From positions 1-43,433 of the forward strand of contig JAKITS010000001.1 of assembly GCA_021648085.1 (NCBI GenBank): 43,433 bases of DNA, written 5' to 3'. Source of the stretch: Candidatus Magasanikiibacteriota bacterium (lineage in GTDB: Bacteria > Patescibacteriota > Patescibacteriia > Magasanikbacterales > UBA922). Of the stretch, positions 3,885 through 42,073 are shown piece by piece. The translations under genes and the position numbers were made by a program. The notes under the pieces are model-generated. The model did not search any database. It was not told the origin of the DNA and saw only the letters and a list, made by a program, of their open reading frames with translations. Position 1 is the stretch's first letter. Each line of letters starts with the position of its first letter.

Positions 3885-4492
3885 ATCTTATTCATTGCGA
3901 TAAGCCGAATTTTGTATCTGCAAAGCAGATGATGATCATTTCTCTAGGCTTGTTGTTACCAACAAGCTCAAACGAACTACCTTTTCGAATTTCGCTCAAG
4001 GCGAGAAAACGCTGTTCTTTCTCCAGATAGGGTTTGCCGCCACTGCATATCACTATGCGTGGAGTATAGTAGTATTGATTCCAAGCTTAAGCTAAGAAAT
4101 TTGTAAAACAAATTTCAGTAAAATCAACACATCTATACACTTTTCACCTTTCACCATATAAAATGGCTAGTATTGTCTCTGTGGTACTATCCCTAGCAAA
4201 CTGTTGCCAGCCTGCCGGTGGGTGTTACCCATTATCTTTTTGGAACCTTTAAATAAATAAAATGTTCGTGTGGAGTTCGGACTTTCCTCCCTATTTGTGG
4301 GATTGTCATTAAATACCATTTCTATTGAAAACTTCAAATTTTAGCTGCGACTTCAAGAAAAAATATTTCCGCAGCTAAAGATGGGCAAAGATTTTTTCTT
4401 GTTGTCTCGCTTAAAATTTAGAAATTTCAATAACGAAAGCGTATTTAATGACAATCCCAGTTAACAAGGCGATCATCTACAATAAATAAGAC
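3885..4492 (-). ncRNA. rnpB: RNase P RNA, bacterial type A-like, with an expanded P3 region
   Basis: Minus strand carries the universally conserved GGAGGAAAGUCCGAACUCCA (rc of 4271-4290) and ACAAAAUUCGGCUUAUCG (rc of 3897-3916), the two P4 strands. It also has UGGUGAAAGGUGAAAAG (rc of 4141-4157). P1 pairs CUUAUUUAUUG (rc 4480-4490) with CAAUGAAUAAG (rc 3887-3897). The region is a locally GC-richer island without an ORF. Confidence 0.85.
4299..4458. repeat. 160-nt imperfect-palindrome (rod-hairpin) module, copy A, inside rnpB
   Basis: Perfect 18-bp closing stem: 4299-4316 gggattgtcattaaatac pairs with 4441-4458. It aligns gaplessly with 14281-14440. Confidence 0.85.
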
Positions 4493-4534
4493 CTTATATT
4501 TATACCATATTTTAGTCCTTTTGTCAATAAATGA

Positions 4535-5678: not shown

Positions 5679-6275
5679 ATGTCAAAAGAATTTTATATTT
5701 CAGTGGATATTGAAACCGCCGGAACTGTACCAGAAAAATATAGTATGCTTTCTGTTGGTGCTGTTATTGTTGGTCAAAAAGACAAGGAATTTTATAGAGA
5801 ATTAAAACCGGTTAATTTTAATTTTGAAAAAGAAGCTTTAGATGTTTGTAGAAGTTGTTTTTCCGAGGATACACAAGTGCACTTAAAAGAAATGGAGGAT
5901 AAAAAACCAAGTGATATACTTTATGCTTTGCAAGATGTGGGGCATGAACCTGGAGATGTGATGGAGGATTTTTTTTCTTGGGTAAAAGAAGTTTCACCAA
6001 AAGATGTTAGGCCATTATTTTTAGGCTATAACGCATCTTTTGACTGGCAGTTTATAAATGCGTATTTTAATAAATATGTAGGTGAAAATCCATTTCGGTA
6101 TGATCCGGTGGACATAAAAGCATATTATATGGGGAAAAATAAAATGCTTTGGACAGATATAAGTAAAAAGGCAATTCGCAGGAAATACGGTTTGAAAGAA
6201 AATCAATTACCACACAATGCACTGTTTGATGCAAAAGAACAGGCTGAAATTTTTGAAAGTATGTTAAATGAATAA
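5679..6275 (+). CDS. DEDDh-type 3'-5' exonuclease (DnaQ/epsilon-like fold)
   Basis: Exo motifs: SVDIETAG (Exo I), GYNASFDWQF (Exo II), HNALFDAKEQAE (Exo III, H-x4-D). Confidence 0.7.
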   Translation: MSKEFYISVDIETAGTVPEKYSMLSVGAVIVGQKDKEFYRELKPVNFNFEKEALDVCRSCFSEDTQVHLKEMEDKKPSDILYALQDVGHEPGDVMEDFFSWVKEVSPKDVRPLFLGYNASFDWQFINAYFNKYVGENPFRYDPVDIKAYYMGKNKMLWTDISKKAIRRKYGLKENQLPHNALFDAKEQAEIFESMLNE

Positions 6276-6419
6276 GAGAACGATGAATCTCTTACGCCTG
6301 GTGGATCAAGAAAATGGTAGACTAAGCAGGTCAAGTAAAGAAAAAAATAGAAAAGCAAAAAACCTAAATATTTCATCTTGAGAGAAGCATAATGATCTCT
6401 GTAGTTTGGAATAAAAATA

Positions 6420-6562
6420 TGTCATCCTGAGCGAAATGGAGCAAGGCGGAATGAAGTCGAAGGATCTCGCAACAGAATAACCAGAACTCTAAATATTCAT
6501 AATTCTAATGATACTTTCCCGAGATATTTCGACTCAGTTTCACCATGCTCAATATGGCATAC
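6420..6562. repeat. Family-1 palindromic intergenic element (arm - loop - inverted arm)
   Basis: Left arm GTCATCCTGAGCGAAATGGAGCAAGGCGGAATGAAGTCGAAGGATCTCG. Right arm CGAGATATTTCGACTCAGTTTCACCATGCTCAATATGGCAT is its imperfect reverse complement. Related copies lie at 18907, 21124, 22215 and 41863. Confidence 0.85.
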
Positions 6563-6574
6563 GGATTTTTTTTG

Positions 6575-6660
6575 TCATTCTCAGCTCGACTGGGAATTCA
6601 GAGTCTACAAAATAGAACAGTGATATAAACCATGGATCCTCAGTCAAGCTGAGGATGACA
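6575..6660. repeat. Family-2 palindromic intergenic element
   Basis: GTCATTCTCAGCTCGACTGGGAATTC ... GGATCCTCAGTCAAGCTGAGGATGAC form inverted arms. Related copies lie at 32838, 32977 and 42074. Confidence 0.85.
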
Positions 6661-6674
6661 GACAAAATATAAAA

Positions 6675-14052: not shown

Positions 14053-15523
14053 AAAAATAGATTTTTTAAAAGCTAGTAAAATTTCACTAGCTTTATTTTT
14101 GTTCGTCTTACCTTGGCAAACGGTATATATTTTTAGAGAAGTTTTTTGGGAAAGTACAAAGTGGCAATACGGAACTTTAAATTTTTATTTTTTTGAAGTT
14201 GTTTTGTGGTTTTTTATTTTTTTTGGTTTTTCTTACTTTTGGAAAAATAAAATTAAAAATTTTAAAAACCTAAAAACACGGGAACTATCTTCAGGTATCA
14301 TTTTTACTAAAACCTATAAATTTTGGCTACGACTTCAAGAAAAAAGTTGGTCTATACTGTGGTATAAGCAAAAATTTTTCTTTTCGTCGCGCTCAAAATT
14401 TAAAAGTTTTACTAACGAAAGCATATCTGAAAATAATTCCTTAAAACAAAAAATAATCCCAGTATTTTTCACCTCATTAATTTTTTTATTTTTAATAATA
14501 TCTAGTTTTTTTGTAGGTGATCCTGCTTTAGCTTTTCAAAAATTAAGACAAATTATTCAAGTTTTATTATTTTTATTTTTAATAATTTCACTCCCAATAA
14601 AGTTTAATTTTATTGTAAAATGGTTTTTTATTGGCTCTATATTGCCAACAGTTTTAGGTGTTTGGCAGTTTATAGCACAAAATTCGTTCAGCTCTACTTT
14701 GCTTGGAATTTCAGAACATCTTCCGTGGGTAGGTGGGTCGTCTGTAATCTCCAATCCAACAATTGGCTACTGGCTCCGCGCTTATGGAAGTTTTGCGCAT
14801 CCAAATATTTTTGGTGGGTATTTATTTTTTGTTTTAGTTTCTTTATTTATTTATTTTTACAATTCAAAAAAATATTCTTCTTTACTTATATTTATTATAT
14901 TTTTACTCCCAACGACCGGTCTGTTTTTAACATTTAGTCGTTCGGCTTGGATAGTATTTTTACTTGTTTTCATTATTACTTTTTTTATTTCATTTTTGAA
15001 AAAAAAAGATGCGTTTGTTCGTGCTTTATTTTATTTAAGTTTTTTTATAATTAGTTTAGTTTTTATATTTTTTCCATTAGTCCAAACTCGTATATCGGGA
15101 AATTCTATAACAGAAATAAAATCTGTGCAAGATAGAATGCTTGGATATTCTGAAGCTAAAGATTTGTTTATTGAAAATTTATTTTTTGGTGTTGGTGGTG
15201 GAAATTACACTTTAGCTTTGAAAGAAAAAAATCCAAACCTAAAACCTTGGAAATATCAACCAGTCCATAATATTTTTATGTTGTTTTTGGTTGAATACGG
15301 TTTGATTGGTTTTACTATTTTATTTGGTGGTTTGTATGTTTTAGTTAAAGAAATAAAGATTAAAAAGTGTCTTAATTTAACTACTATTCTATCTTTATGT
15401 CTCTTTATAATTTTAGGAATTTTTGATCATTATCTATACTCATTTTCTGTTGGGCTACTGCTACCTTCTTTATATTTTGCGGTTATTTACAAGTATTTTC
15501 TTGACAAAAAACACAAAGTATAG
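13979..15523 (+). CDS. O-antigen ligase/polymerase-like (Wzy_C family) polytopic membrane protein carrying an in-frame repeat insertion
   Basis: More than 10 hydrophobic helices, with LTFSRSAWIVFL and a large loop typical of the Wzy_C/RfaL family. The ATG at 14036 (MGFLNKK) is a plausible alternative start. Nt 14281-14440 are copy B of the 160-nt module. Confidence 0.7.
   Translation: MKMTDENSIEQNGKKNVWNMGFLNKKIDFLKASKISLALFLFVLPWQTVYIFREVFWESTKWQYGTLNFYFFEVVLWFFIFFGFSYFWKNKIKNFKNLKTRELSSGIIFTKTYKFWLRLQEKSWSILWYKQKFFFSSRSKFKSFTNESISENNSLKQKIIPVFFTSLIFLFLIISSFFVGDPALAFQKLRQIIQVLLFLFLIISLPIKFNFIVKWFFIGSILPTVLGVWQFIAQNSFSSTLLGISEHLPWVGGSSVISNPTIGYWLRAYGSFAHPNIFGGYLFFVLVSLFIYFYNSKKYSSLLIFIIFLLPTTGLFLTFSRSAWIVFLLVFIITFFISFLKKKDAFVRALFYLSFFIISLVFIFFPLVQTRISGNSITEIKSVQDRMLGYSEAKDLFIENLFFGVGGGNYTLALKEKNPNLKPWKYQPVHNIFMLFLVEYGLIGFTILFGGLYVLVKEIKIKKCLNLTTILSLCLFIILGIFDHYLYSFSVGLLLPSLYFAVIYKYFLDKKHKV
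14281..14440. repeat. 160-nt rod-hairpin module, copy B, inside the Wzy-like CDS
   Basis: Aligns gaplessly with 4299-4458. The closing stem ggaactatcttcaggtat / atatctgaaaataattcc is homologous to the copy A stem but differs through paired substitutions. Confidence 0.85.
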
Positions 15524-18906: not shown

Positions 18907-19030
18907 ACGTCATCCTGAGCGATAGCCGAAGGATCTCACAACAAAAACACCAGAACTTTAAATATTCAAAGTCTTAATGACATTGTCACGAGATGTTTCG
19001 ACTCCGTTTCACTCCGCTCAATATGACGTG
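18907..19030. repeat. Family-1 palindromic element (left arm shortened)
   Basis: ACGTCATCCTGAGCGATAGCCGAAGGATCTCAC ... CACGAGATGTTTCGACTCCGTTTCACTCCGCTCAATATGACGTG. Confidence 0.85.
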
Positions 19031-19095
19031 AATAGAGTTTTCTGTTATGTGAATCGAAGACAAGATTTTAAAATTATATACTACTTCACTACAAA

Positions 19096-19716: not shown

Positions 19717-19880
19717 TACTTGATGAATGGCTTCGCTTGGATTAGAAAGTTCCAAATGTTCTATTTGTTCTTATTTAATCTGTCGCACATTTAACGTTAT
19801 ATTGAGCGTAGTAAAACGAAGTCGAAATATCCCTATACAATATAACCAAAACACAAATAATTAAAATAAAACATTAACTC
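19717..19880. repeat. Composite repeat: 'CTTGATGAAT...GCTTCGCTTGGATT' module, one family-1 arm and the 'AAATAATTAAAATAAAACAT' module
   Basis: The same three modules recur at 22519-22700 with the outer module inverted: rc of 22629-22685 reads cttgatgaat...gcttcgcttggattgg, and aaataattaaaataaaacat occurs at both sites. Confidence 0.7.
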
Positions 19881-21075: not shown

Positions 21076-21123
21076 AGCGATGAAGCGTTTACATTTAACT
21101 AAAAGAAAGAGAAAAGTCATATG

Positions 21124-21308
21124 CGTCATATTGAGCGGAGTGAGACGGAATCGAAAAACCAAGATACGTCATATTGAGCGGAGTGAAGCGGAGTCGAAAT
21201 ATCTCGTGAAAGTATCATTAGAACCTTGGATATTTTACATTTTTATGATTCTGTTGCGAGATCCGTTCGACTTCATTCCGCTTCGCTCCATTTCGCTCAG
21301 GATGACGT
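21124..21308. repeat. Family-1 element with an extra 43-nt arm unit (inverted relative to the 6420 copy)
   Basis: CGTCATATTGAGCGGAGTGAGACGGAATCGAAAAACCAAGAT, then ACGTCATATTGAGCGGAGTGAAGCGGAGTCGAAATATCTCG, then the loop, then CGAGATCCGTTCGACTTCATTCCGCTTCGCTCCATTTCGCTCAGGATGACGT. Confidence 0.85.
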
Positions 21309-21355
21309 TTTTAACTTTCTACTTTATTAACTTTCCAACTTTATAAACTTAAAAC

Positions 21356-22198: not shown

Positions 22199-22214
22199 AA
22201 AGTTTATAAAAAAC

Positions 22215-22563
22215 ACGTCATATTGAGCGAAGCAATGCGGAATTGAAAAACCAAGATACGTCATATTGAGCGGAGCAAGGCGGAATCGAAAACACAACAT
22301 ACGTCATATTGAACGAGGCAGGACGGAGTCGAAAAACCAAGATACGTCATATTGAGCGGAGTGAAACGGAGTCGAAATATCTCGTGAAAGTATCATTAGA
22401 ACTTTGGATATTTTGCGTTTTTGTGATTCTGTTGCGAGATCCTTCGGCTTCGCTCAGGATGACGTGTGAAAAAATACGTCATATTGAGCGAAGCAAGGCG
22501 GAGTCGAAAAACCAAGATACGTCGTCATATTGAGCGGAACGAAGTGAAGTCGAAATATCTTGG
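22215..22563. repeat. Array of 43-nt family-1 arm units (3 tandem, then a full palindromic element, then 2 more)
   Basis: ACGTCATATTGAGCG...CGAAAAACCAAGAT units start at 22215, 22258, 22301, 22344, 22476 and 22519. Units abut directly with no unique spacers. Confidence 0.9.
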
Positions 22564-22817
22564 TTTAATATCACTAAAATATAAATAATTAAAATAAAAC
22601 ATCAGCCCAGTCCTATCCTGTTCTATCATTTTCCAATCCAAGCGAAGCGATCTATTAAACTGAACGAAGTTTAGTGATTCATCAAGAAAAGCACAGCTTT
22701 TCGATACATCAAGCGACAATGATCCATCTTTTCTTTATGTTATACACAGCTACCTTATTGTCGGTAGTTGTGTTTTTTTGTTATAATATAATTACATAAA
22801 TAAGACCTATTCAAAAC

Positions 22818-23433: not shown

Positions 23434-26400
23434 ATGTTTAAAAAAACACAAGGTTTTGCAAGAAAAGTAATAATAGGATTTGTAATAAGCACACAAGTCT
23501 TTATTGGTTTACTTTTTGCTGGGCCGGTGAAAGCTGGTACTATGGAAAGTGCTGGTTCTTTTATAAATAAATTTTCAGGAGATAGTCCTATTGGAGATGT
23601 TGTTAATGAAGCTGCTGATAAAGCTGCTTCTAAACTTGGTTATCCTGTAGTAGTTACGACAGATTTGGGAGATTATGTAGAGATGGCTTGGCAATCAATA
23701 TATGAAGCTAGTTTAAATGCACTAATGGGTGGTTTTTCACATTTTATGAATCAGCTTGCTTACGACACGGCTTTATATGTGACCTCTGGTGGAAGTGGGC
23801 AGGGTGCTTTAGTTTTCCAAGACGGATTTGGTAGCTATTTAGAAAAAACTTTTGAGGCAAGTACAATGGCTGCACTTGGAGAGCTTGAAGATCATTATGG
23901 GATAAATTTGTGTGAACCAAATACCGAAATTAAATTTTTCCTAAATGTAGGAATTCAAGATCTTCTTCTTCCAGAGATAGGACCACCAACACCACCAGCT
24001 TGTACTTGGCAAAAAATGTCAAAGGGTTGGTCAAATGCATACTACCAAACAGTCAATCAGTTAGAAGGAATTTTGGACGCTCCGCCAATTGAAGTTGCTT
24101 TTTTGGAGAGTGCCAATTTGGCAGATTCAGATTTTGGCATAGCTTTTGGAGCAATAGATTTGGTAAGGAAAAAAGCTGCACGAGATACAGAAGGTGCAAA
24201 AAATGAACGGTTAGAAGGAAATGGTTTTAAGCCTGTAAAAGATTTGGTTTCAGGCGCTATTGTCACACCCGCACATTTAATAGGTGAGGAGGCCGAAGGT
24301 TTAACTGGAAAAAGTTTTGCACAGATTAATAATACTCAAGTTGCAGGTCTTTATGGTTCTCAGGCTTTAAATGTTGTAATTGGCGCTTCTGGAATTTTCT
24401 TGAACAATGTTGCGTCGCAAATGCTTAAAAAGATTATGCAAGAAGGTCTGCTTCCAGTTCCAATAGGTGATTCTTCTTCATTTGGTTCGGCAGGTTTAGG
24501 AGACTATCGCCGTGCAGCAGAGTCAGCATTTAGCTTCTTTTTTACCTCTGTTCCTACAAAACAGCTAAATGCTTATAGTTTGGAAACAATTTTTGCAGCT
24601 TGCCCAGACAATCCTGGGTTAAACAATTGTGTAATAGATAGTGGAATGCAAAGAATTTTACAAATCGCAAAACAAGGTACTCCACTTACAGTACAAGAAG
24701 CTGTTGACCAAGGAATGCTAGATCCAAATAAGCCTTTTATTTCACCAAAAAGACTTTTAGATCACAACGATGTTAAGACTTGTTATCTAAAAGGATTTTG
24801 TTATTCAAACCTTCAAAAATTGAGAAAAGTTCGTGTTTTACCTGTTGGTTTTGAGCTTGCGGCTCTTCGCTCAGACCCAGACAATCTGCAGGCTTGGACA
24901 CTTGGGAAAGTAATGGCAGGTTTTGAAGATTGTACCAGAGATGGAGATGGTAAAGCTATTTTTGATATAGCAAAACCATTTTGTCATCTTGTGGATCCAA
25001 ATTGGACAATAAAAATTCCAGAAACTCGTTGTGAATCTTTGGTAAACGGACCAGAACTTTTGGATAGTAATATTTCAAATAGAAAAGAAGAATGTGTAGA
25101 TGTCTCAACTTGTGTGACAGAAGGGGAGAACGGAGAATGCCTCGGTGATTTTGGTTATTGTACAGAAGAAAAAAATGTCTGGAGAATAGAAGGAGAGACT
25201 TGTCCGGCAGAATACACAACTTGTCGCAATTATGTGGCGCAAAGCGGAGAGATAAACTCTTATCTTTCTAGAACTGTTGATTATGGAGAGTGTAGAGCAG
25301 AAAGTGTTGGTTGTCGTGCTTATAGTACAGAAAAGTCTGGAGACATTTGGACTTCTAGTGCAGACGCAAGCTCTAGATTGAAAAATTTAGGTAGAAATCA
25401 GACAATTTATTTTGGAAGTGAAATAAATGCTTCCACTTGTCCTGCAAATGCAGCTGGTTGTAGTGCTTTTTATACTTTAAATCAGGAAGGAGAAAAAGGA
25501 AGATTGACTTATCTCAAAAAAGCTCCAGATTATCTAACTTGTTATGATACACAGCCTGCAACACCAGAAATAGACTGGCCAACAACAAAAGCTGATTTAT
25601 CACTTCTTACAAACAATGATAAGTGTGATGCTTATGCAGAAGTTTGTCTTCCTGAGGAGGTTGCTTGTGATTTATATACTCCGCTTGCGGGTGGTCCAGA
25701 ACTTTCTGGTGTAATTGGCAACAATATTTGTGCAAGCGAATGTGTAGGTTATGATACTTTTAGACAAGAGTCCACATCTTTTGCACCAGAGGAATACCCA
25801 CTTTATCTCATCCCAACAAATGGAGATGTCTGTTCTGCTCAATATGCAGGCTGTGACGAGTTTACAAATATTGAAGCTGGTTCAGCAGGAGGAGAAACTT
25901 TGGAGTATTATAGTGATTTCAAACAATGTGAAAAACCAGATAGTGGAAATGACAAGGTTTTCTATTCTTGGGAAGGTTCAGTTTCAGAAGGTTTTGTGTT
26001 AAAAGTTCATCATCTATCACCAATAGATGATGCTAGAAATTCCTATATTCAAAATTTATCATTATTTGCAAATGCTAAAAATGATTTGGTGGTTGGTTCA
26101 CCAGCTTATTCAGATGATACAGCACAATCATTAAAAAACAATTACAAATCTTGTAATGAAAAAAACTATAACATTTTAATAAACGATCCTTTTAGTATAG
26201 ATTCTGCAGACGAAGATTGTAGGGCTTTTTATGATGATGAAGGTGAAGTATTTTATAGGCTTTTTGCAAAAACTATTACAGTTTCCAACTCTTGTCATAA
26301 AATTAGAAAAACAGAGTCAAGACTGTTTGTGGATAATACAATCGGTGATCAAAATTCTTGTGATCTAAAAAATGGAGTTTGGGACGGTGCAAGCTGTGAG

Positions 26401-29400
26401 CGTTGTTTCAATGGTGGAAGTTATGAAAATGGAGCTTGTATCTATCAAACTATTTCTAGTCCTAGCGAATCAAACTCTTGTCCAGTTTCTGTAAATGGTT
26501 GTAGGGCTTATGTAGGAAACGCAGGAAATAATATCAGAGAAATAATGTTCGATAGTTTTGAGCCTTTTGATAATTCACCAAATGCACTTCTCTCAGCACG
26601 CGAAGGTTGGGACAGTTCAGATGGTACAGGTCTAAGTGTGGTTGGAGAGGCTACTCAAGCTGGACTTCATTCTTTGCAGGTAAATTCAGATATTATATCT
26701 CGTGAGTTTGACGCAGGTGATATAACTCCAAATTCTTTTTACGAGCTTTCATTTTGGTCTCGCGGAGTACCGCAAAATTTAGATATTATAATGAAAGATG
26801 ACTCAGGTTTAGGAGTATCTTTTACAGTAAACTCAATTACAAATTCAACTGCACTGGTTTCAATTGGAGACAATTGGAAAGAATACAAACTTGGGCCTGT
26901 AGAATTCAAGGGAGCAGGTGTTGCAAACATAGAATTTACACGAAGTGCAATAGGTAGTACTTCTTTGGGTGTATATTTTATAGATAACGCGAGACTTACA
27001 AAAGTAAATGATTTTACATATTTGGTAAAAGATTCATGGCAAACTTCAGAAGGATACAATGTTCCTCTTTCTTGTGATAATACTCCAGAGGATTCATTGC
27101 CAGGGTTCGCACTTGGCTGTGAGGCTTTCAATGATCAACTTGGAACTACCTACTATGCCACAGGTTTTGAAAATTTATGTAGAGTAGAAGCTGTAGGATG
27201 TGAACCACTTTTAGACACTTTCAATACTACCGAAGGACAAGATTCAGAATTGGCTCAAATTTTCAATGCTTGGTGCGAAGGTGGTGTGGGTGAGTGTACT
27301 ATTTCTGTCGATGAGCCAACTTCGGATAGAAATAATACACAAATTCAAAAGAAAATAAATATTGGATCGTGTAATGTGGATATTGATCAAGACGGTTGTT
27401 ATATTTCAAAAATTATTGTCCCATCCCATATTGAGATTGGTGATTTAGACTATGTTAGAGTGGAAACAACAGTAATAATTCCAGCAGACACTTCAATAGA
27501 AAATCCTATTTACCTTACAAATAGTCAAAAATATAAATGTTCACCTCAAAAACTTGGTTGTCAGGAAGTTGCACTGGAATCACACATTCTACCTTCTAAC
27601 CAACCTCAAGCTTTTGAGTTTAGTGAGCAATTTGTATTGAGTAATCCAAACAATTATCAAGAAACTTTGTGCCAATCAGACCAAGTTGGTTGTGGGGAAT
27701 TTAGATCAGACAAAAATATTAGCTACTTTGTAGATCCAAAAATAACAGGAGGAAGTGTTTGTGTATACAAAAGTATAGGAGCTTCAGGAAGTGATAACTA
27801 TGGTTGGTTTTTGGACGGAATCGGTTCCTGTAGTTCTGGAAATGGAGATTTGTGTAAGGTGGATGACGATTGTAGTGGTGATACTAATATTTGTGAAAAT
27901 GTAGGTTCTACTGCTTGCTACGATGGATATATAAAACAAGGTGGAGAGCTTGGAATTTGGTCCAATGAATCTGTAAATTATGACGGTTTTGTAGGAGCTT
28001 GTGAACAGCAATATAATGCTTGTACAGAACTTGTAGATCCTGCAGACACATCAAATAATGCAGACGGTAAATCATACTTTGTAGTTTACGACGAAAAAAT
28101 GCAAGATCAATCTGGTGAGTGTGGTGGGCAAGTTAGTCAAAATGACGGCTGTGTACTTTTTGATAAAACAGACAATCCAAATAAAATATATAATTCTGTA
28201 GAAACTTACAAAAATAGTGAAGATGCAGATCCTAAATTTGGACCAGTAAATCCTGTTATGGACGGCGTTAAAGACACAAATGTAATTTTGAAAGTAAACA
28301 GAGATAGAGAATGTTCAGAGTGGCTAGCTTGTAAAACTTCTGTACCTTTTACAGATGAAAAAGGAGTTCGCACAGAGCTTTGTTATCAATACGATTTGTG
28401 TAATGAATCTCTGCCGGGAGTAGGTTGTATAAGTTGGGTTGGAGATGATAATGAAAATATAACTCTTAGCCCAGAGGAGTATGTTGTAAGAGGAACTTCT
28501 TGGTACGACAATGAATATACGGGTTATTCACTTCTTAATAAATACCCAGTTCAAGATTTTGTATATGTAGATTTCGATTTAAGTGATGATGCGGATAAAG
28601 AATTAGACGATGAGTTTGGAGATAGTTTGTTTTTGGGATATGAATTTGTACCAGCTCCTAGTTTTGAGCAGTTTGGTTGCGTTTTGAATGGTGTAAAAAA
28701 AGAACAGTTCCAGGTTTGTGGTCTTACAAATGGGGGTATTTGTACTGATAATGGTCAATGTATAAAACCTACGGATGGTGCATTTATTGGTGGCATAGAA
28801 GAGAAAAATGAAAAAAGTTTTAGAAATAGTAGATTGGTTTTAGAGACATTAGATGTTGGAATTTGTAAAAGTTTCCCAGAAAAAGATAGTCCATTTGGTT
28901 TTGATATTGTTGTAAATTCATATAAAACACTTATTACAAATGGAGTTTCTGCAACAAGAAAACGAATAACAGACAAAAAACGTGTATTCAGCGGCGCAAA
29001 CACTTGCCAAGACGGAGAGTGTAGTTGTGAGTACAAAAAAGTTTCTTACGGTGGGTCTGTTGTAGATTATTGGCCATTAACAAAAAGTGATCAAGAAATC
29101 CCGGGCGGTGTTTGTGCAAGCGGTAGTTTAGGTGGTAATCCGTGTAATTATAATTCAGATTGTAGTATTCTTAGTGATGAGGGATTGTCAAGTTATGGAA
29201 GTTGTATAAAAAGATTCAACACAGAGCGTCGTATTGGTCTTCGTGGTTTCTGTCTTGAGTATGACTTGTCTAGACCTATTGGAAATGGCGAGTACGCTTG
29301 TTTAACTTGGCTTCCAGTAGACGCTTCTGCTTCTAAAATAGATTTGCACAATTATTATCCAGAAGCTGGCTACTACCCAGTCCCAGAATATGACGCACCA

Positions 29401-32043
29401 AATGGTGGTGGAGAAGTTTATTGTACTCAAAGTACATCTCGTGGTGCTGGGGAGTATGATGAGGGTATGTATATTTTTAAGAACTTTGGTGATTTGGATT
29501 CTATTAGTGGCGAACTCAATCCACCTTCAAATAATGATAAATTTGATAATATTTTTTTAAAAACAGGAAAAGCAGTAAAAAACCCATATATTGATTCTTT
29601 TTCAGGTTTTACATATTTTACACATCCTTATATAGAAAATTATGTAAATAAAACAAGTGATTCAAATGGAAAAGAAAACTTTTATTCACTTATGCAATCA
29701 TGGGCTTGGAAATATATAAACACAAATGCAAGAATTTTAAGATTGGAATTAAATGGCAATGGTTTTAGTGGTCGGGCAAGTGGTGATAAAGACACAACAG
29801 ATCCATATAAACAATATTTCTTTGCTCCGCAAGTTTATAATACAGCAGGAGTTGCTATGCATTCACCACGAATTTGGGATGATACTGTTCTTGGAATGGA
29901 ATATTATTATTATACTCAATTTAAAACAGGAGCGAACGATGATCTTTATGATGATAGAAATATTTTCACAGATTCAATGTCGGCAGAAAAAACTGCTGGA
30001 TTAGAAGATGATTTATACATATCTCCTATACAAAAAACTTTAATAGAAAGTGAGTTTGAAAAAGTTTATTTTGTTGGCTTAAAACATGTTAATAATTATG
30101 AACAGGGGATAACACCTGCGTTATTAACGACAGATTTTAGTTTAAATATAAAAGAGTTAAAACAAAGATTAGAGGACAATAAACCAAATAATGAATCTAT
30201 ATTTAAATCTGGAGTTTCTCAAGCGTTAGGTAGTCATTATTCAAAAAATTTAATGCTGGATGATAATTTGGGAGTTACTTGGTCTTATGTGTTAGAAAGA
30301 ACAGGTTCATCTTCGGAATGTGGTGGGTTGTTTTCTTATTGCGATTATGTAAACAATGAATTTATTCTAAATTATAATAATCCAGAAGTAAACGGAATTA
30401 GAAATCAAATAAATAGAAGATATGTTATTGTATTTTTTGAAGATATTGGAAGAAAAGGTGAAAGATTTTTACCTGTTTTTGTAAATAAAAATGGACCACC
30501 ATTAAATAGTACACAAGATCCTTTTTCTGCAGGATGCGTAGATGGACAGGGTGGTTATTTGGCAATTGGAATGGATTTTAATAGAGGTGGAGAATTTTTG
30601 GGATATATTTCTAAATGGTGTAATTCAACTAAAAGTAGTGGAACGGCAGGTATCCAACTTGCGACAATTGCAACATTAAATGATTATTGTACAGAATTTA
30701 CCTCTGTTTATAATCCAGATGAAGATACTACAAATAAAGCATGGACAGATAGGGTTTGGAAGTATGCTAGGGAAAATAGATTTGTAACCCCTTATAGACA
30801 AATTACTCTTAGCACATTATTACAACCTTTTGGATCTACTTTGCTTTCAATGAATAATTTGAATAAATATGATGGAAGTGGGGATTTCACAGAAAAATAT
30901 GTTTTGAATAATCCTATAAAAGGTGTTCCATATATGTGTGATTATTCTAATTTTACTGTATTTGATTTGAAAAATTATGCTTGTTTAGCTTTAAACAATG
31001 TAGGTTATCCAGACTCTTTAACAAGTAAATTATCAGAAGCCTCAGCAAGGTTTGCACCTGCTGGTTATGAATTTGGTAAAGATGCTATACAAGCTATTTT
31101 TGCAAAAATATTTACTCCTTCTATTGAAGAAGGCTTAAGTGAATTGGATTCAAATTGGGATAAAGAAATATTAATTACAAGTGAACTTAGAGATTTATAT
31201 CCACCTCAGATTTACTCACTTAATCCTGATAAATGTTTTAATATAAATGGAAAAAGTCAGACCTGTGTTGGTGCAGAAAAAAACTCAATAACAGTAAATG
31301 GAAAAAATGGAACTTTGTTAGATTATAATGGCGATGGTTTTCCAGATGAAGACAAAGATAAAAACGGTGAGACAGATTCTATAATTGGAGTTGGAAATAA
31401 ATCTGTTTCCTTAAACTTTTTTGCTTGGGCGGACGACAATAGAATGCCAATAAGAAGAATAATGGTAGATTGGAGTGATAATAGTCTAATTACAAATGAA
31501 AATAAAATGGGTTTTTATAAAAATAAAAAACCATTTTGTGGTGGTGAAACTGCAGAAAATGTAAAAGTATGTGTAAATAAGGCTACACGTTCAGATATAG
31601 AATATATTAAGACAGGTCTTACTTGTCAAGAAGATTCTGATTGTTCAAGTGATAATACTTGTAGAGATATAGGAGCTAGTGATAATTTTGGTTCATCATC
31701 TCGTGCTTGTGAAGAAGGGTATTTTGAATTTGGACATAGTTATACTTGTGGGCCAGAAGACGAAGGAAAAGATTATTGGACATTAGTTTCTGGAGAGATT
31801 GGTGGAGTTGCAAACTTTACATCAGGACAAAGAGATCAATTATCTAAATTTGGTGTTGGTGCAAATGATTATGTGTGTGTATTCCAACCAAAAGTTCAGG
31901 TTTTGGATAACTGGGGTTGGTGTAATACAAGTGATGGAACAGGTCAATATAATGATGATAATTTTGATTGTGATTTTGGTAATAGTGAAGTTTGGACGTA
32001 TTATAAAAATAAAATAATAATAATTCCTCCTAAAAAAGATTAA
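23434..32043 (+). CDS. Giant (2869 aa) secreted cysteine-rich surface protein with one CBM/jelly-roll-like module
   Basis: Uninterrupted ORF with a signal-like N-terminus (VIIGFVISTQVFIGLLFAGPVKA). It has many closely spaced Cys and a recurrent GC[RSEDGQ][AE][FYV] motif. Nt about 26545-27006 read like a CBM4/9-type beta-sandwich (GWDSSDG...HSLQV...YELSFWSRG...WKEYKLGPVEF...VYFIDNARL). A DGFPDEDKDKNGETD acidic loop lies near the C-terminus. Confidence 0.85.
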   Translation: MFKKTQGFARKVIIGFVISTQVFIGLLFAGPVKAGTMESAGSFINKFSGDSPIGDVVNEAADKAASKLGYPVVVTTDLGDYVEMAWQSIYEASLNALMGGFSHFMNQLAYDTALYVTSGGSGQGALVFQDGFGSYLEKTFEASTMAALGELEDHYGINLCEPNTEIKFFLNVGIQDLLLPEIGPPTPPACTWQKMSKGWSNAYYQTVNQLEGILDAPPIEVAFLESANLADSDFGIAFGAIDLVRKKAARDTEGAKNERLEGNGFKPVKDLVSGAIVTPAHLIGEEAEGLTGKSFAQINNTQVAGLYGSQALNVVIGASGIFLNNVASQMLKKIMQEGLLPVPIGDSSSFGSAGLGDYRRAAESAFSFFFTSVPTKQLNAYSLETIFAACPDNPGLNNCVIDSGMQRILQIAKQGTPLTVQEAVDQGMLDPNKPFISPKRLLDHNDVKTCYLKGFCYSNLQKLRKVRVLPVGFELAALRSDPDNLQAWTLGKVMAGFEDCTRDGDGKAIFDIAKPFCHLVDPNWTIKIPETRCESLVNGPELLDSNISNRKEECVDVSTCVTEGENGECLGDFGYCTEEKNVWRIEGETCPAEYTTCRNYVAQSGEINSYLSRTVDYGECRAESVGCRAYSTEKSGDIWTSSADASSRLKNLGRNQTIYFGSEINASTCPANAAGCSAFYTLNQEGEKGRLTYLKKAPDYLTCYDTQPATPEIDWPTTKADLSLLTNNDKCDAYAEVCLPEEVACDLYTPLAGGPELSGVIGNNICASECVGYDTFRQESTSFAPEEYPLYLIPTNGDVCSAQYAGCDEFTNIEAGSAGGETLEYYSDFKQCEKPDSGNDKVFYSWEGSVSEGFVLKVHHLSPIDDARNSYIQNLSLFANAKNDLVVGSPAYSDDTAQSLKNNYKSCNEKNYNILINDPFSIDSADEDCRAFYDDEGEVFYRLFAKTITVSNSCHKIRKTESRLFVDNTIGDQNSCDLKNGVWDGASCERCFNGGSYENGACIYQTISSPSESNSCPVSVNGCRAYVGNAGNNIREIMFDSFEPFDNSPNALLSAREGWDSSDGTGLSVVGEATQAGLHSLQVNSDIISREFDAGDITPNSFYELSFWSRGVPQNLDIIMKDDSGLGVSFTVNSITNSTALVSIGDNWKEYKLGPVEFKGAGVANIEFTRSAIGSTSLGVYFIDNARLTKVNDFTYLVKDSWQTSEGYNVPLSCDNTPEDSLPGFALGCEAFNDQLGTTYYATGFENLCRVEAVGCEPLLDTFNTTEGQDSELAQIFNAWCEGGVGECTISVDEPTSDRNNTQIQKKINIGSCNVDIDQDGCYISKIIVPSHIEIGDLDYVRVETTVIIPADTSIENPIYLTNSQKYKCSPQKLGCQEVALESHILPSNQPQAFEFSEQFVLSNPNNYQETLCQSDQVGCGEFRSDKNISYFVDPKITGGSVCVYKSIGASGSDNYGWFLDGIGSCSSGNGDLCKVDDDCSGDTNICENVGSTACYDGYIKQGGELGIWSNESVNYDGFVGACEQQYNACTELVDPADTSNNADGKSYFVVYDEKMQDQSGECGGQVSQNDGCVLFDKTDNPNKIYNSVETYKNSEDADPKFGPVNPVMDGVKDTNVILKVNRDRECSEWLACKTSVPFTDEKGVRTELCYQYDLCNESLPGVGCISWVGDDNENITLSPEEYVVRGTSWYDNEYTGYSLLNKYPVQDFVYVDFDLSDDADKELDDEFGDSLFLGYEFVPAPSFEQFGCVLNGVKKEQFQVCGLTNGGICTDNGQCIKPTDGAFIGGIEEKNEKSFRNSRLVLETLDVGICKSFPEKDSPFGFDIVVNSYKTLITNGVSATRKRITDKKRVFSGANTCQDGECSCEYKKVSYGGSVVDYWPLTKSDQEIPGGVCASGSLGGNPCNYNSDCSILSDEGLSSYGSCIKRFNTERRIGLRGFCLEYDLSRPIGNGEYACLTWLPVDASASKIDLHNYYPEAGYYPVPEYDAPNGGGEVYCTQSTSRGAGEYDEGMYIFKNFGDLDSISGELNPPSNNDKFDNIFLKTGKAVKNPYIDSFSGFTYFTHPYIENYVNKTSDSNGKENFYSLMQSWAWKYINTNARILRLELNGNGFSGRASGDKDTTDPYKQYFFAPQVYNTAGVAMHSPRIWDDTVLGMEYYYYTQFKTGANDDLYDDRNIFTDSMSAEKTAGLEDDLYISPIQKTLIESEFEKVYFVGLKHVNNYEQGITPALLTTDFSLNIKELKQRLEDNKPNNESIFKSGVSQALGSHYSKNLMLDDNLGVTWSYVLERTGSSSECGGLFSYCDYVNNEFILNYNNPEVNGIRNQINRRYVIVFFEDIGRKGERFLPVFVNKNGPPLNSTQDPFSAGCVDGQGGYLAIGMDFNRGGEFLGYISKWCNSTKSSGTAGIQLATIATLNDYCTEFTSVYNPDEDTTNKAWTDRVWKYARENRFVTPYRQITLSTLLQPFGSTLLSMNNLNKYDGSGDFTEKYVLNNPIKGVPYMCDYSNFTVFDLKNYACLALNNVGYPDSLTSKLSEASARFAPAGYEFGKDAIQAIFAKIFTPSIEEGLSELDSNWDKEILITSELRDLYPPQIYSLNPDKCFNINGKSQTCVGAEKNSITVNGKNGTLLDYNGDGFPDEDKDKNGETDSIIGVGNKSVSLNFFAWADDNRMPIRRIMVDWSDNSLITNENKMGFYKNKKPFCGGETAENVKVCVNKATRSDIEYIKTGLTCQEDSDCSSDNTCRDIGASDNFGSSSRACEEGYFEFGHSYTCGPEDEGKDYWTLVSGEIGGVANFTSGQRDQLSKFGVGANDYVCVFQPKVQVLDNWGWCNTSDGTGQYNDDNFDCDFGNSEVWTYYKNKIIIIPPKKD

Positions 32044-32760: not shown

Positions 32761-32837
32761 GGTTTTTGGAGTAAAAAGTCTTCAAAAAAGTCAAAAGTCT
32801 ATAAAGTTTGTAAAGTGAAAAGTTAGAAAACCTGCAT

Positions 32838-32926
32838 TTTCATTCCCGGCTCGATCGGGAATCCAGGGTTAAAAACAGTAAAACGTTAAATAAAACTGGA
32901 TCCCCAATCAAGTTGAGGATGACAGG
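32838..32926. repeat. Family-2 palindromic element
   Basis: TTCATTCCCGGCTCGATCGGGAATCCAGG ... CTGGATCCCCAATCAAGTTGAGGATGACAGG. Confidence 0.8.
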
Positions 32927-32976
32927 ACAGGGGGGGTCGAAAGTTTATAAAGTCCATAAAGTATAAAGTTTTTTTT

Positions 32977-33061
32977 CGTCATTCTCAGCTCGACTGGGAA
33001 TCCAAAATCTACAAATGTAAACTATTTTTATATAAAAATACATAAACTTTAATAATTACAT
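32977..33061. repeat. Family-2 half element plus unique tail; direct repeat partner of 42074..42158
   Basis: Aligns gaplessly to 42074-42158 (offset 9097 nt) at roughly three-quarters identity, with a perfect 28-nt block at 33030-33057 = 42127-42154 (atataaaaatacataaactttaataatt). Confidence 0.8.
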
Positions 33062-35571: not shown

Positions 35572-36180
35572 ATGTTTAAAGAAAAAAGTGGTATTATATT
35601 ATTTGTTTTATTGTCTGCATTTATAATTGGAGGAATTTTTATTTTGTTTAATGTTTTTCAAGATGTGGAAGAGTGGGGAAGTGAGGAAGTTGATAGCGTT
35701 GTAGTAGTAGAAACAGAAAAAAACGATGAAGAAGAAAAACCAAAAGAAGATATTATTGAAATAGTAACCTCCACTATAGAAAATATTGAAGTTGTAGAAA
35801 AAGAAATAATTGTGGAGAAAATAGTAGAAAAAGTGGTGTATATAGAAAAAGAGGTAGAAAAAAAAATAGAAAAACCTATTGAAAAGAATTTAAAACCAGT
35901 TGTAAAAGCCGAGCTTGCTGTATGTTCAGATGATATGCGCTTTCAATGTTGGGATTTACTAACTTGCGAAGAAAATGGAGAGGGTTATGGATCACCAACG
36001 CTTTGGACTGCAAACAATTTGGAGGAGGTGGCGCCAGCTTGTGGACAGTGGACAACGGACTCTGCAAAACTTCCAACAAGTTGGAGTTGTTGTTGTGGTT
36101 ATAGTGAAGATTGGCAAGAAGAAGGTGGAAGTAAAGCGTGTTATTCACCAGTTTACACATCAAACCTAACTTTTGAATAA
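35572..36180 (+). CDS. Membrane-anchored protein: E/K/I/V low-complexity stalk plus one 'QCWD...CCCG' Cys module
   Basis: TM helix IILFVLLSAFIIGGIFILF, a stalk EKEIIVEKIVEKVVYIEKEVEKKIEK, and the module at about 35923-36159 (CSDDMRFQCWDLLTC...GYGSPTLW...SWSCCCGYSEDW...C). Confidence 0.7.
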   Translation: MFKEKSGIILFVLLSAFIIGGIFILFNVFQDVEEWGSEEVDSVVVVETEKNDEEEKPKEDIIEIVTSTIENIEVVEKEIIVEKIVEKVVYIEKEVEKKIEKPIEKNLKPVVKAELAVCSDDMRFQCWDLLTCEENGEGYGSPTLWTANNLEEVAPACGQWTTDSAKLPTSWSCCCGYSEDWQEEGGSKACYSPVYTSNLTFE

Positions 36181-36181
36181 T

Positions 36182-36922
36182 ATGTCAGACAAAAAGCTAA
36201 AAATTATTTTAACAATTATAATAGTTCCATTTTTAATTTGGGGATTGTTTACTTTACTCACAGTGCAAAATGAGGAGATAGAAGAAGTTCAAGAAGAAAA
36301 ACAAGAAGTCGTAATAGAAGAGTTAGATATAGAAATAATAGACCTAGAAGGTCCAAAACAAAAATATATAAATAAAACCCACGGTTTCTCTTTTGAGTTT
36401 CCTGATGAGATGGAATATATACCTTCTATTTATGTTAAAGATATTGAATTTATAAAGAATTATTTTAAGTTGGAAGAAAAAAAATGCTTAAAAAAAGATA
36501 AGCCTAATGTTTGTAGAATATTTCCAAATGGATTGAGTATACTTTTGGAAGTGGATTCATATCGTAATAACAAGTGCAATGTTAATTTGCTTAATAAGGA
36601 TATAACTTTTAATTTAAATTTGTATAGTAGTTTTGATAGAAATGTTAGATTACAAGTATTTAAAACAAAAAAAATAGATAATATAGAAATTAAAACAGCA
36701 CGAGTGGACGAGTTTGTAAAAAGAGAAAGTGGTATTGAATATGGTTATCATACAAAATTAAAGACTTTATTTTGTATCGATGATAAAATAATTAAATTTA
36801 CTTTAGAGGATAATTACGTGGAAAATGATGTGAATATAAATGGTATTAAAAATAAATACAATTTATCGTATGAATATTTTCAAGAAATAGTAAATTCATT
36901 GGAGTTTTTAAATAAAAAATAA
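36182..36922 (+). CDS. N-terminally anchored paralog 1 of a conserved-ends / variable-core family
   Basis: MSDKKLKIILTIIIVPFLIWGLFTLL, DLEGPKQKYINKTHGFSFEFPDE, C-terminal IVNSLEFL. The ATG at 36182 has the same aataatATGtcagacaaaa context as paralog 3. Confidence 0.7.
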   Translation: MSDKKLKIILTIIIVPFLIWGLFTLLTVQNEEIEEVQEEKQEVVIEELDIEIIDLEGPKQKYINKTHGFSFEFPDEMEYIPSIYVKDIEFIKNYFKLEEKKCLKKDKPNVCRIFPNGLSILLEVDSYRNNKCNVNLLNKDITFNLNLYSSFDRNVRLQVFKTKKIDNIEIKTARVDEFVKRESGIEYGYHTKLKTLFCIDDKIIKFTLEDNYVENDVNINGIKNKYNLSYEYFQEIVNSLEFLNKK

Positions 36923-36925
36923 TAT

Positions 36926-37696
36926 ATGTTAAATAAAAAATATAAAATTTTAATATTATTGTCCATATTATTATTTTCTGTTGGTTTGGTTTCTTTTTTA
37001 TTAACTAAAAATAATAATATTGTTAATACAGACAATGTTATAAAAGAATTAATAAAACAACCTTTAAATACAGAATTAGAAGTAAAATTAGTAGATTTGA
37101 AAGGTCCAAAACAAAAATACATAAATAAAACTTATGGATTTTCATTAGAGTTTTTAGATGAAATAGAACTTTTTAATAATAATTATAAAATTAACAATTT
37201 AAAAGAATCTTTTACAAACGAAAGGACTTGTTTAAAAGGGTCAAAAAATAGTAATTGTAATATTTTAGATAAAATATATAATTTCCGTCTTTTTTATTGG
37301 ATAGGCTTTGACCTAAATATGGAAAAAGAATTAGAGCAAATTTGCAATAATTCATTTATTGAAGAAAAAAATAGAGTTTATTTAAATGAGTATAAAAATT
37401 TAAACCAAAATAATAAATTTAACTTTAAAGAGATTGGTGGAAAAATTAATAATTTAAATTTTAAAGGAATAGAATTTAATAAAAAAATAATTGAACCAGT
37501 TGGAGGTCAGCCTGAAATTAGAGTAAAAACACACAGAAAAAACAGCGATATAAATATATATTTATGTTTAAATAAAGATACATTATTAAATTTTAATGGA
37601 AATATTAATACTTATATCGATGATACAAAAAGATTTAATATTTTGTATAAACAGATTTACGAAGTTGTAAATTCACTAGAATTATTATCGGAATAA
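36926..37696 (+). CDS. Paralog 2 of the same family
   Basis: TM anchor, DLKGPKQKYINKTYGFSLEFLDE, C-terminal VVNSLELLSE. Confidence 0.7.
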   Translation: MLNKKYKILILLSILLFSVGLVSFLLTKNNNIVNTDNVIKELIKQPLNTELEVKLVDLKGPKQKYINKTYGFSLEFLDEIELFNNNYKINNLKESFTNERTCLKGSKNSNCNILDKIYNFRLFYWIGFDLNMEKELEQICNNSFIEEKNRVYLNEYKNLNQNNKFNFKEIGGKINNLNFKGIEFNKKIIEPVGGQPEIRVKTHRKNSDINIYLCLNKDTLLNFNGNINTYIDDTKRFNILYKQIYEVVNSLELLSE

Positions 37697-37697
37697 T

Positions 37698-38390
37698 ATG
37701 TCAGACAAAAGACTTAAAATTATTTTAACAATTGTAATAGTCCCATTTTTAGTGTGGGGATTGTTTACTTTGCTTACAAAACAAGGAAGTAAGATAGAAG
37801 AAACCCAAGAGCAACAACAAGAGGTTGCAATAGAAGAGTTAGATATAGAAATAATAGACCTAGAAGGTCCAAAACAAAAATATATAAATAAAACCCACGG
37901 TTTCTCTTTTGAATTTCCTGATGAGGTTGAGTATCAAGATTTTGGAAAACCAGATTATGCAGACTATTATGTGTTTAATTTGGCAAATAAAGAGTGTATG
38001 CAGTTTGACGAGTGTGGAACTATGGGAATTTATAATGAATGGTTAAACTATTCTATAAACATTCACAATTTGCTTGATAGTGAAAAATGTAATCAAGAAT
38101 TTATTGATAAAAAAATAAGTTACGACACAGGACTTATTGATGGTGAGTATGTTCAAGTTGTTGAATCTTTGAAAACAATAGAAAATGAGAATTTCTTGAT
38201 TAAAGAGCTTTTATATACAAGTAATTATGAAAGTCCTGGTACTTTTATGTCTGCTTATATTTGTTTGGATAATAATTATATTTATTTGCAAGGTGTTAGT
38301 GATATAAACATAAAAGAAGCCGAAAAATTTAATCCTTTGCATAAAGAATTTGAAGAAATTATAAATTCATTAGAATTGCTGTCTAATTAA
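37698..38390 (+). CDS. Paralog 3 of the same family
   Basis: MSDKRLKIILTIVIVPFLVWGLFTLL, an identical DLEGPKQKYINKTHGFSFEFPDE, C-terminal IINSLELLSN. Nt 37829-37912 are identical to 36313-36396. Confidence 0.7.
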   Translation: MSDKRLKIILTIVIVPFLVWGLFTLLTKQGSKIEETQEQQQEVAIEELDIEIIDLEGPKQKYINKTHGFSFEFPDEVEYQDFGKPDYADYYVFNLANKECMQFDECGTMGIYNEWLNYSINIHNLLDSEKCNQEFIDKKISYDTGLIDGEYVQVVESLKTIENENFLIKELLYTSNYESPGTFMSAYICLDNNYIYLQGVSDINIKEAEKFNPLHKEFEEIINSLELLSN

Positions 38391-42063: not shown

Positions 42064-42073
42064 GAGTTATTGT

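Follow-up and report, generated by a model that had tools for sequence, protein, structure and literature searches.

Introduction

Small palindromic repeats that move about bacterial genomes have been described from several lineages. The Rickettsia palindromic elements (RPEs) number 728 in R. felis, with 85 lying in open reading frames (ORFs) and three in RNA genes (PMC1166351), and they have been reported in the genes for transfer-messenger RNA and for M1 RNA, the RNA of RNase P, according to a passage of PMC2229807 that cites Ogata et al. 2002. The bcr1 element of the Bacillus cereus group occupies locations that vary between strains and is transcribed (PMC3184786), and its mobility has been linked to a TTTAT motif (PMC6542083). 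In-frame fusions of MITEs, or miniature inverted-repeat transposable elements, to genes have been reviewed (PMC10969869), and the element IMU generates a target-site duplication (TSD) of 5 bp and is mobilised in trans by a transposase that has matching ends (PMC3184786). Here we describe a comparable situation in a stretch of 43,433 nucleotides (hereafter the window; positions 1 to 43,433 of the forward strand of contig JAKITS010000001.1, assembly GCA_021648085.1) from a Candidatus Magasanikiibacteriota bacterium, a member of the Patescibacteria (candidate phyla radiation, CPR), in which a palindromic element occurs once within rnpB, the gene for RNase P RNA (copy A), and once within a gene for an O-antigen-ligase-like membrane protein of the Pfam family Wzy_C (copy B).

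Additional sequence at the tips of RNA helices has precedents of other kinds. In 23S rRNA, intervening sequences located at the tips of helices are excised without religation, M1 RNA can be reconstituted from fragments, and helix P12 of cyanobacterial RNase P RNA contains short tandemly repeated sequences (tandem heptamers) that are tolerated at the tip of this peripheral helix. A first-pass annotation of the window had read copy A as a hairpin module in the place of helix P3, preserved by selection upon its pairing. The analysis presented here leads us to conclude, with considerable confidence, that copy A is instead a MITE copy which landed in the loop of P3 and was tolerated, and that copy B is its sibling in a loop of the Wzy_C protein.

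Results

Two copies of a palindromic element in the window

Copy A is an imperfect palindrome of 160 nt (Table 1), with Watson-Crick complementarity at 46 of its 80 mirrored positions. Its terminal arms (4299-4316 and 4441-4458) form a perfect stem of 18 bp, just as the first-pass annotation had described. In the RNA fold U4459 and A4298 contribute a 19th pair, and in the sense of the rnpB transcript the element is predicted to fold as a single rod (-62.3 kcal/mol). The second copy that had been proposed is likewise present at the same length, and aligns with the first without gaps at 108 of 160 identical positions. Eight differences of 18 had been counted on each arm; this is right for the left arm, while the right arm has seven. 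The six pairs said to have changed on both sides with pairing kept (3/158, 7/154, 10/151, 12/149, 14/147 and 18/143, in element indices) are all correct, as is the further pair of the inner helix, where 4327/4428 in copy A is G-C and 14309/14410 in copy B is A-T. Given eight and seven changes among 18 positions, six or more coincident and fully paired positions would arise by chance with a probability of about 1.2e-5.

No third copy of the element was detectable in the window, and a search of Rfam returned no family that matches it, in keeping with the earlier failure to recognise a named RNA. The matches obtained at a permissive E-value were to generic long-hairpin precursors of plant and animal miRNAs, far under threshold, and were rejected as matches of composition and shape.

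A dispersed family with the hallmarks of MITEs

A first scan of GTDB representative genomes with a degenerate (loose) pattern of the element's core gave mostly chance matches in AT-rich genomes. Among the matches listed, the metagenome-assembled genome CAZHUL01 was the only informative one, displaying many pairs of plus and minus pattern matches some 56 nt apart, and a profile search confirmed full copies of the element there. A second pattern, taken from the most conserved arm, retrieved 47 metagenome stretches, all of them from a few Joint Genome Institute (JGI) samples that also hold the relative designated P0002. In total the profile search yielded 92 matches, of which 64 were full length, at 46 or more distinct loci; this is the count after removal of loci seen in several samples, and the loci belong to a related groundwater population of Patescibacteria.

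The copies of this family measure 156-163 nt, are without a transposase gene, and end in terminal inverted repeats (TIRs) that, over 42 copies, show 95% pairing in their outer helix. A perfect 5-bp TSD flanks 18 of 44 copies, and in eight more the duplication matches at four of five positions; shuffled pairings of left and right flanks gave only 2.5% perfect and 9.6% four-of-five matches, and offset controls were not enriched. The targets are AT-rich (ATAAA, TTAAT, ATTAT, TACAA and others), with ATAAA or TTTAT accounting for six of the 26 clear TSDs. Almost all copies are intergenic or clip the end of an ORF, copy B being the only one that lies fully within an ORF (about one of 48 loci), and the orientation of the copies relative to neighbouring genes is unbiased. 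Other MITE families are nested inside some copies, and one such family also occurs in the window. The element thus belongs to a MITE family and is not an RNA module specific to RNase P. Selection on the helix had been offered as an explanation in place of a MITE; the 5-bp TSDs, the dispersed loci and the existence of empty sites speak for a MITE all the same.

The first-pass annotation had also considered that the two copies might be the only ones and might stem from a recent segmental event. A private segmental duplication, or a chance pair of palindromes, with no repeat family behind it would be compatible with the presence of only two copies in 43 kb. This explanation can nevertheless be practically dismissed, as related genomes hold at least 46 further loci, for which TSDs and empty sites are seen, and as the flanks of copies A and B are unrelated to each other.

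Some individual copies are of interest in their own right. A diverged copy (L052:5983-6140) is located 15 nt upstream of a minus-strand tRNA gene (5896-5968), and by its position may be part of the tRNA precursor, an RNase P substrate. In L032, copies from different sublineages (164-323 and 2367-2525) bracket an ORF of 684 aa (323-2377), with overlaps of 1 and 11 nt at its ends; this may be coincidental or may represent a composite arrangement. The possibility that solo ends and split copies mark a parent insertion sequence (IS) was considered, and they turned out to be fragments, or else copies into which other MITE families had inserted. A role of the conserved core as a promoter, a terminator or a site for integration host factor (IHF) was also considered and rejected, inspection giving no convincing match and the copies showing no orientation bias.

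The insertion in rnpB and the alleles of its relatives

Rfam model RF00010 (RNaseP_bact_a, type A) matches the minus strand of the window at 3885-4315 with 116.8 bits (gathering score 100); the match starts inside the element, with the 5' end of the gene mis-set and a false P1-P3 forced. The 5' helices P1-P3 were recovered by hand reading and by a minimum free energy (MFE) fold of a 616-nt region, which gives P1, P2 and the base of P3 with the rod isolated from them. The true gene (Table 1) is then about 608 nt long with the insert, or about 447 nt once the insert is discounted, both P4 strands (GGAGGAAAGUCC and ACAAAAUUCGGCUUAU) are found, and P3 without the insert is 20 nt, equal in length to that of relatives. 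The promoter-like sequence upstream is kept in the same register in the related loci L118 and L150, and had been omitted by a consensus promoter scan because the rule demands T as the last base of the -10 hexamer, which TTGACA-17-TATAAA lacks; as predicted from this sequence, transcription would start near G4492. With the limits of the gene given by P1-P3 and by the promoter-like sequence, the element therefore lies inside the transcript, in the loop of P3. The position first assigned to the hairpin, within the P3 region of a minus-strand rnpB, is accordingly borne out by both reading and fold. P3 is, however, extended by the element and not replaced, since its 7-bp base stays in place and has as its homolog CCUUGUCA/UGACAGGG, from the short P3 of L118 and L150.

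The rnpB genes of these two loci provide the most direct comparison, and comparison with relatives free of the insert at P3 had indeed been advised. In L150 the gene has an ordinary P3 hairpin (CCUUGUCA-AUUU-UGACGGG) and an intact J5/7 hairpin, and scores 171.5 bits in Rfam with a clean P1-P3. In L118, which belongs to CAZHUL01, the same short P3 is found, a plain helix of 8 bp as in L150, and the gene has a copy of the element of its own in the loop of the J5/7 hairpin (133.4 bits). The window has the reverse arrangement, with the element in the P3 loop and the J5/7 hairpin empty. In L118 the family's plus strand is transcribed, which is the opposite orientation to copy A; the L118 copy has mutually complementary arms, both of which border on rnpB sequence, and the assembly of L165 shows the same right junction. 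With inserts removed, the window gene is 84% identical to that of L150 and 81.5% identical to that of L118, and the latter two are 94% identical to each other. L150 is empty at both sites, and so supplies the empty allele for copy A as well as for the L118 copy. The insertions in the window and in L118 are independent events, and the pattern of two insertions in peripheral hairpin loops, together with an empty allele, fits tolerated passengers and not a conserved domain. Closer relatives were sought through the gene next to rnpB, for which the best match had 89% identity on a contig of 905 nt and the next 70%.

Two further observations concern these genes. The extra J5/7 hairpin (between P5 and P7) is characteristic of the clade, at about 4570-4595 in L150 and about 7575-7745 in L118, and is missing from the Rfam type A consensus. 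The CAZHUL01 contigs (L014-L120) carry the rnpB that is 81.5% identical to that of the window, and have the same MITE family as the contigs with a Magasanikbacteria-like Wzy_C/GroEL block; the label "uncultured Gammaproteobacteria bacterium" attached to CAZHUL01 is probably wrong.

It is against this background that a functional interpretation of the rod must be judged, namely that it is an RNA module recruited to enlarge the P3 domain (for instance an arm that binds protein or stabilises the RNA, as with the extended P3 of eukaryotic RNase P/MRP), with the covariation reflecting selection on the RNA helix. Copy A, which is 82% identical to the family consensus, does have a perfectly paired helix, all 26 of its outer pairs being formed and its 5+5 arm differences from consensus all compensated; the conserved internal loops of the core could be a binding site, and rnpB otherwise looks intact. 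A dedicated domain would nonetheless be expected to occupy one position among orthologous RNase P RNAs and to keep a constant orientation. In the rnpB genes that come closest (81.5-84% identical) P3 is a plain helix of 8 bp, L118 has its element at another site of rnpB and in the opposite orientation, as does the Wzy_C mRNA relative to the window rnpB, and L150 is free of the element. At least 44 other copies are intergenic and have TSDs, and wobble pairs and A-C mismatches (38 versus 47) show no preference for a strand. We therefore consider a recruited domain very improbable.

The insertion in the Wzy_C gene

Relatives of the Wzy_C host protein are about 430-460 aa long, and copy B constitutes a single clean in-frame insertion of 53 residues, which none of the 11 aligned homologs has, P0002 at 68% identity among them. 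An empty site is also seen in DNA, L001 reading CCTAAAAATAGAA|TTAAATC where the window reads CCTAAAAACACGG, then 159-160 nt, then TTAAAAC. The insertion falls in a hydrophilic loop rich in K and R between the hydrophobic segments 66-87 and 155-187, is not itself hydrophobic, and leaves the invariant residues of the family in place. Homologs of this protein and of the CcdA-like protein come overwhelmingly from Candidatus Magasanikbacteria and other Patescibacteria.

The Wzy_C mRNA carries the strand opposite to that transcribed in the window rnpB. The family consensus has one open frame on this strand, (+,1), which is likewise open in 20 of 42 copies, while the other five frames are almost never open and only about 2% of frames are open in shuffled sequences. 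Copy B is read in this frame; translated likewise, copy A gives a recognisably similar peptide with one stop. With the frame open in the consensus, the insertion in the Wzy_C gene therefore adds 53 residues to the reading frame and does not truncate it, and the expressed protein would presumably be longer by that amount. As most copies are near-identical, the open frame is not independent evidence of coding selection. The peptide of about 53 residues encoded by this only open frame matches no family, and a search of a large protein database with its profile gave seven orphan ORFs of 31-83 aa; no further long protein with such an insertion was found, in a search that also missed the window's own protein, and the absence of other in-frame cases is therefore weakly supported.

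Copy B also bears upon the fate of the rod in the rnpB transcript, which might act as an intervening sequence, cut out by an enzyme like RNase III and not religated, such that the mature RNase P RNA would consist of two pieces held together by P1, P2 and P3. The perfect duplex of 19 bp that runs into a rod of some 70 bp is a plausible substrate for a double-strand RNase, the insertion is at a helix tip, and P1 (14 bp), P2 (8 bp) and the base of P3 (7 bp) could hold the two fragments. The presence of copy B in an mRNA with its frame kept open suggests read-through, however, even if this point is tempered by the weaker fold of copy B in the mRNA sense (-40.6 versus -55.1 kcal/mol). On balance we regard excision as unlikely.

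Covariation, conserved core and variable arms

Covariation was assessed over 42 non-redundant copies, for which RNAalifold predicts 48 pairs. Standard pairs are formed in 96.2% of cells, in comparison with 91.8% after the 3' partners were shuffled and 37-53% when the partners were slid by one to three columns. Pairs changed on both sides number 23, as opposed to 11.3±1.8 upon shuffling (none of 500 shuffles reached 23) and 5-9 upon sliding, and the corresponding numbers of cells are 98, 22 and 16-23. The helix is genuinely maintained across the family, and the assertion that compensatory change keeps it beyond chance holds both for copies A and B and for the larger set. Its connection with RNase P does not hold, in that covariation is a property of the whole mobile family and the P3 of orthologous rnpB genes is short.

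The distribution of these changes is informative. Near-consensus (young) copies have one-sided changes only and not a single compensated pair, whereas in strongly diverged copies nearly all arm changes are paired (11 in L032b, nine in L144, eight in L043, seven in L139, and five of five in copy A). Copy B, at 75.5% identity to the consensus, has five compensated arm pairs and four that are mismatched or wobble. As compensation is seen only in diverged sublineages, it builds up along lineages that still transpose, and resident copies decay. Among the non-canonical cells G-U (38) and A-C (47) are about equally frequent, so that neither strand is favoured as RNA. Most likely, the pairing constraint acts upon propagation of the element and not upon the resident RNase P RNA.

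The manner in which it may do so is suggested by the unequal conservation of core and arms. When the 12 most diverged copies are compared, identity is 91-97% in the central core and only 57-58% in the terminal arms. The core contains conserved stretches that are not complementary (GGCTAC opposite GAGCGA, and TTC opposite GAA) in nearly all copies, and a sublineage with two A-C mismatches (GGGACTATCACC against GGCGACAGTCCC) is present at a minimum of five loci. It is possible that this pattern arises because a folded substrate is recognised, its core serving as the binding site, or from correction of one arm by the other during propagation.

Arm-to-arm correction would render the matching of arms purely mechanical, with the folded palindrome repaired on its other arm during replication or transposition, and single changes either reverted or copied to the partner. 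This would account for compensated pairs in diverged, spread sublineages and not in young resident copies, for wobble pairs without strand bias, and for the faster evolution of arms relative to the core, which pairwise fixation of changes by conversion would lead one to expect. Yet indiscriminate conversion should erase the mismatches of the core, which persist in nearly all copies, unless selection restores them, and the sublineage with two A-C mismatches indicates that mismatched arms are not quickly corrected. We judge the mechanical explanation unlikely.

The other possibility can be carried further, to a mobilisation machinery that reads the folded hairpin: the nearly invariant and slightly asymmetric core would be its recognition module, the arms would need only to pair, and the rod in rnpB may even be clipped out to leave an active RNase P RNA in two pieces. 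We hold this combination to be rather improbable. If true, recognition of a folded hairpin would differ from ordinary recognition of terminal repeats, and would explain harmless entry into structured RNAs and protein loops.

Other features of the window

The coordinates of the features are collected in Table 1. A second repeat family, unrelated to the element (core CGTCATATTGAGCGGAG...GTCGAAA, partly in tandem units of 43 nt), occupies intergenic spacers in both orientations, and is also found in the spacers of an otherwise syntenic GroEL-RF1-DUF4015-RsmA block. A third, MITE-like family (TGTCATCCCCAACTTGATTGGGGATCCAG...CTGGATTCCCGATCAAGTCGGGAATGACA type) occurs at 6549-6669, 32837-33061 and 42050-42158 of the window and at L143:435-588, where it is nested in a copy of the element studied here; in L003 and L136 it is another palindromic insert, of about 190 nt, that is nested in an element copy. 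Five tandem repeats of 123 nt (41 codons; 80-89% identity) lie at 274-888 in an ORF on the minus strand (229-1083), bracketed by a direct repeat of 232 nt at 99% identity (1-232 and 864-1095); the region looks like either a repeat-domain protein or an assembly-sensitive edge of the window. Also present are a giant ORF of 2869 aa (23434-32043, plus strand), three tandem paralogous genes of about 230-256 aa at 35572-38390 (blocks 65-91% identical, spaced by about 760 nt), and a motif rich in Cys and Trp that is common to an ORF of 202 aa and to the C-terminal part of an M23-peptidase ORF of 812 aa (35934-36134 and 40459-40871).

Table 1. Positions in the window of the two element copies, of rnpB and its parts, and of associated features.
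Feature	Position	Strand	Basis or remark
MITE copy A in P3 loop	4299..4458	-	Family minus orientation in rnpB transcript; arm pairing, fold
MITE copy B	14281..14440	+	Family plus orientation; read in frame as host-protein residues 102-154
rnpB, bacterial type A RNase P RNA	3885..4492	-	Rfam RF00010, fold, 3'-end pairing
P1 5' strand (14 bp)	4492-4479	-	Pairs with 3' end near 3886-3899; fold
P2 (8 bp)	4477-4470	-	MFE fold
P3 base 5' strand CCUUGUU	4463..4469	-	7 bp with AAUAGGG; homologous to short P3 of relatives
P3 base 3' strand AAUAGGG	4289..4295	-	Followed by P4 strand AGGAAAGUCC (4288-4279)
Extra J5/7 hairpin, GAAC-17 nt loop-GUUC	4243..4267	-	Clade-specific; element-free in window
Promoter-like TTGACA (4527-4522), 17-nt spacer, TATAAA (4504-4499)	4499..4527	-	Read from sequence
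O-antigen-ligase-like membrane protein (Pfam Wzy_C), 514 aa	13979..15523	+	PF04932, E=6e-19
Second repeat family	6413-6611, 18924-19042, 19795-19874, 21112-21312, 22204-22602, 41867-42160		

Discussion

The explanation that we favour may be put as follows. A MITE family common to the Magasanikbacteria-like genome of the window and to a related groundwater population moves by DNA transposition, entering AT-rich sites with duplication of 5 bp of target sequence, as the TSDs of the dispersed copies attest; with no transposase encoded in the element and none found nearby, its mobilisation would take place in trans. Most insertions of the family are intergenic, and the copies in the window would be survivors of insertion into genes. 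Copy A would have entered helix P3 at its terminal loop. Being self-complementary, the element is predicted to form a separate rod in the transcript, which in the folding model stacks apart on the 7-bp base of P3 and would leave the catalytic core undisturbed; the intact gene and the peripheral location of P3 suggest that the rod is tolerated. Copy B would have landed in a cytoplasmic-type loop of the Wzy_C protein, in the one open combination of orientation and frame out of six. The constraint of pairing would be exerted as the element propagates, whether through a need for paired ends or for a hairpin in a single-stranded intermediate.

A number of observations weigh against this account and should be set beside the evidence in its favour. 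TSDs were sought by eye at copies A and B with several definitions of the element's ends, and none was convincing; as the window copies have no recognisable TSD, it is their membership of the family that indicates how they were inserted. Neither an autonomous element nor a transposase having matching ends turned up, whether in the window or across some 400 kb of related loci, nor was a transposase domain found in the 19 window ORFs scanned or near solo ends. Variable ends about an invariant core are the reverse of what is ordinarily seen in TIRs recognised by a transposase. The census of the element in the source genome covers the 43-kb window out of a contig of 984 kb, as does the count of rnpB genes, and the interrupted state of rnpB and of the Wzy_C gene is read from the gene sequences. 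The L118 copy spans an assembly gap (a run of N at L118:7666-7675), and some metagenome contigs are chimeric at element copies, namely L165 and L133. At L165:1321-1479 the left flank of one locus is joined to the right flank of the rnpB copy, and at L133:344-502 the flanks of two loci are joined; misassembly induced by repeats should be expected in this lineage.

If the favoured explanation is correct, then Patescibacteria carry active MITE families despite genomes of about 1 Mb, and such elements can sit in the gene of an essential ribozyme and in that of a membrane protein. The three rnpB alleles (insert in P3, insert in J5/7, and none) would amount to a natural experiment on the tolerance of extra helices at peripheral loops. 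There are also consequences of a practical nature. Annotation by covariance model mis-sets the 5' end of the window gene and loses about 55 bits (116.8 versus 171.5), and interrupted rnpB genes in metagenomes may consequently be missed or truncated. Furthermore, clean compensatory variation can stem from the arms of a mobile palindrome and be mute on the function of a host RNA, which calls for caution in the discovery of RNAs by covariation.

Comparison with known systems places the element among elements of familiar kind, with some differences. The tandem heptamers of P12 and the intervening sequences of 23S rRNA are lineage-specific extensions or tandem repeats, unlike a transposon with TIRs and TSDs. 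The Correia/NEMIS, ERIC, RUP, Coxiella QMITE and Tn3-derived IMU elements are similarly small, and have terminal inverted repeats, TSDs, long RNA stem-loops and occasional in-frame fusions with ORFs (PMC3184786, PMC2229807, PMC10969869). Their terminal repeats are conserved and match known ISs, whereas the ends of the present element vary yet remain complementary, its core is nearly invariant, and no parent IS was found.

The likeness to bcr1 is closer, as this element is of about 155 bp, is flanked by direct repeats of 5 bp, and undergoes compensatory changes that keep its hairpin (PMC3184786). It is a likeness in kind only, by description: bcr1 is confined to the B. cereus group, and the targets of the present element are AT-rich pentamers generally and not one motif. 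In the literature searched we found no bcr1 copy in rnpB, and likewise no report of a MITE in rnpB of CPR bacteria.

The RPEs are the nearest parallel in behaviour. They too are mobile palindromic repeats (about 105-150 bp) that form long stem-loops and are found in intergenic DNA, in frame within ORFs, and in RNA genes (PMC2229807, PMC1166351), and their insertions are regarded as tolerated and roughly neutral additions. Insertion into RNA genes, RNase P RNA included, is seen here in the P3 loop of the window and in the J5/7 loop of L118, and in-frame insertion into a conserved protein gene in the 53 codons that copy B contributes to the Wzy_C gene. The differences lie in the host, Patescibacteria as opposed to Alphaproteobacteria, in the TSDs, which are clear (5 bp) in the present family and listed as uncertain for RPEs (PMC2229807, Table 1), and in the frequency of insertion within ORFs, which is rare here (one of about 48 loci) and frequent for RPEs. 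The resemblance is one of behaviour and not of sequence, and given the hosts it is unlikely that the element belongs to either the RPE or the bcr1 family. A mobile palindrome in an RNase P RNA gene is already known from Rickettsia, and the present case is a new example of this and not a new kind of RNA.

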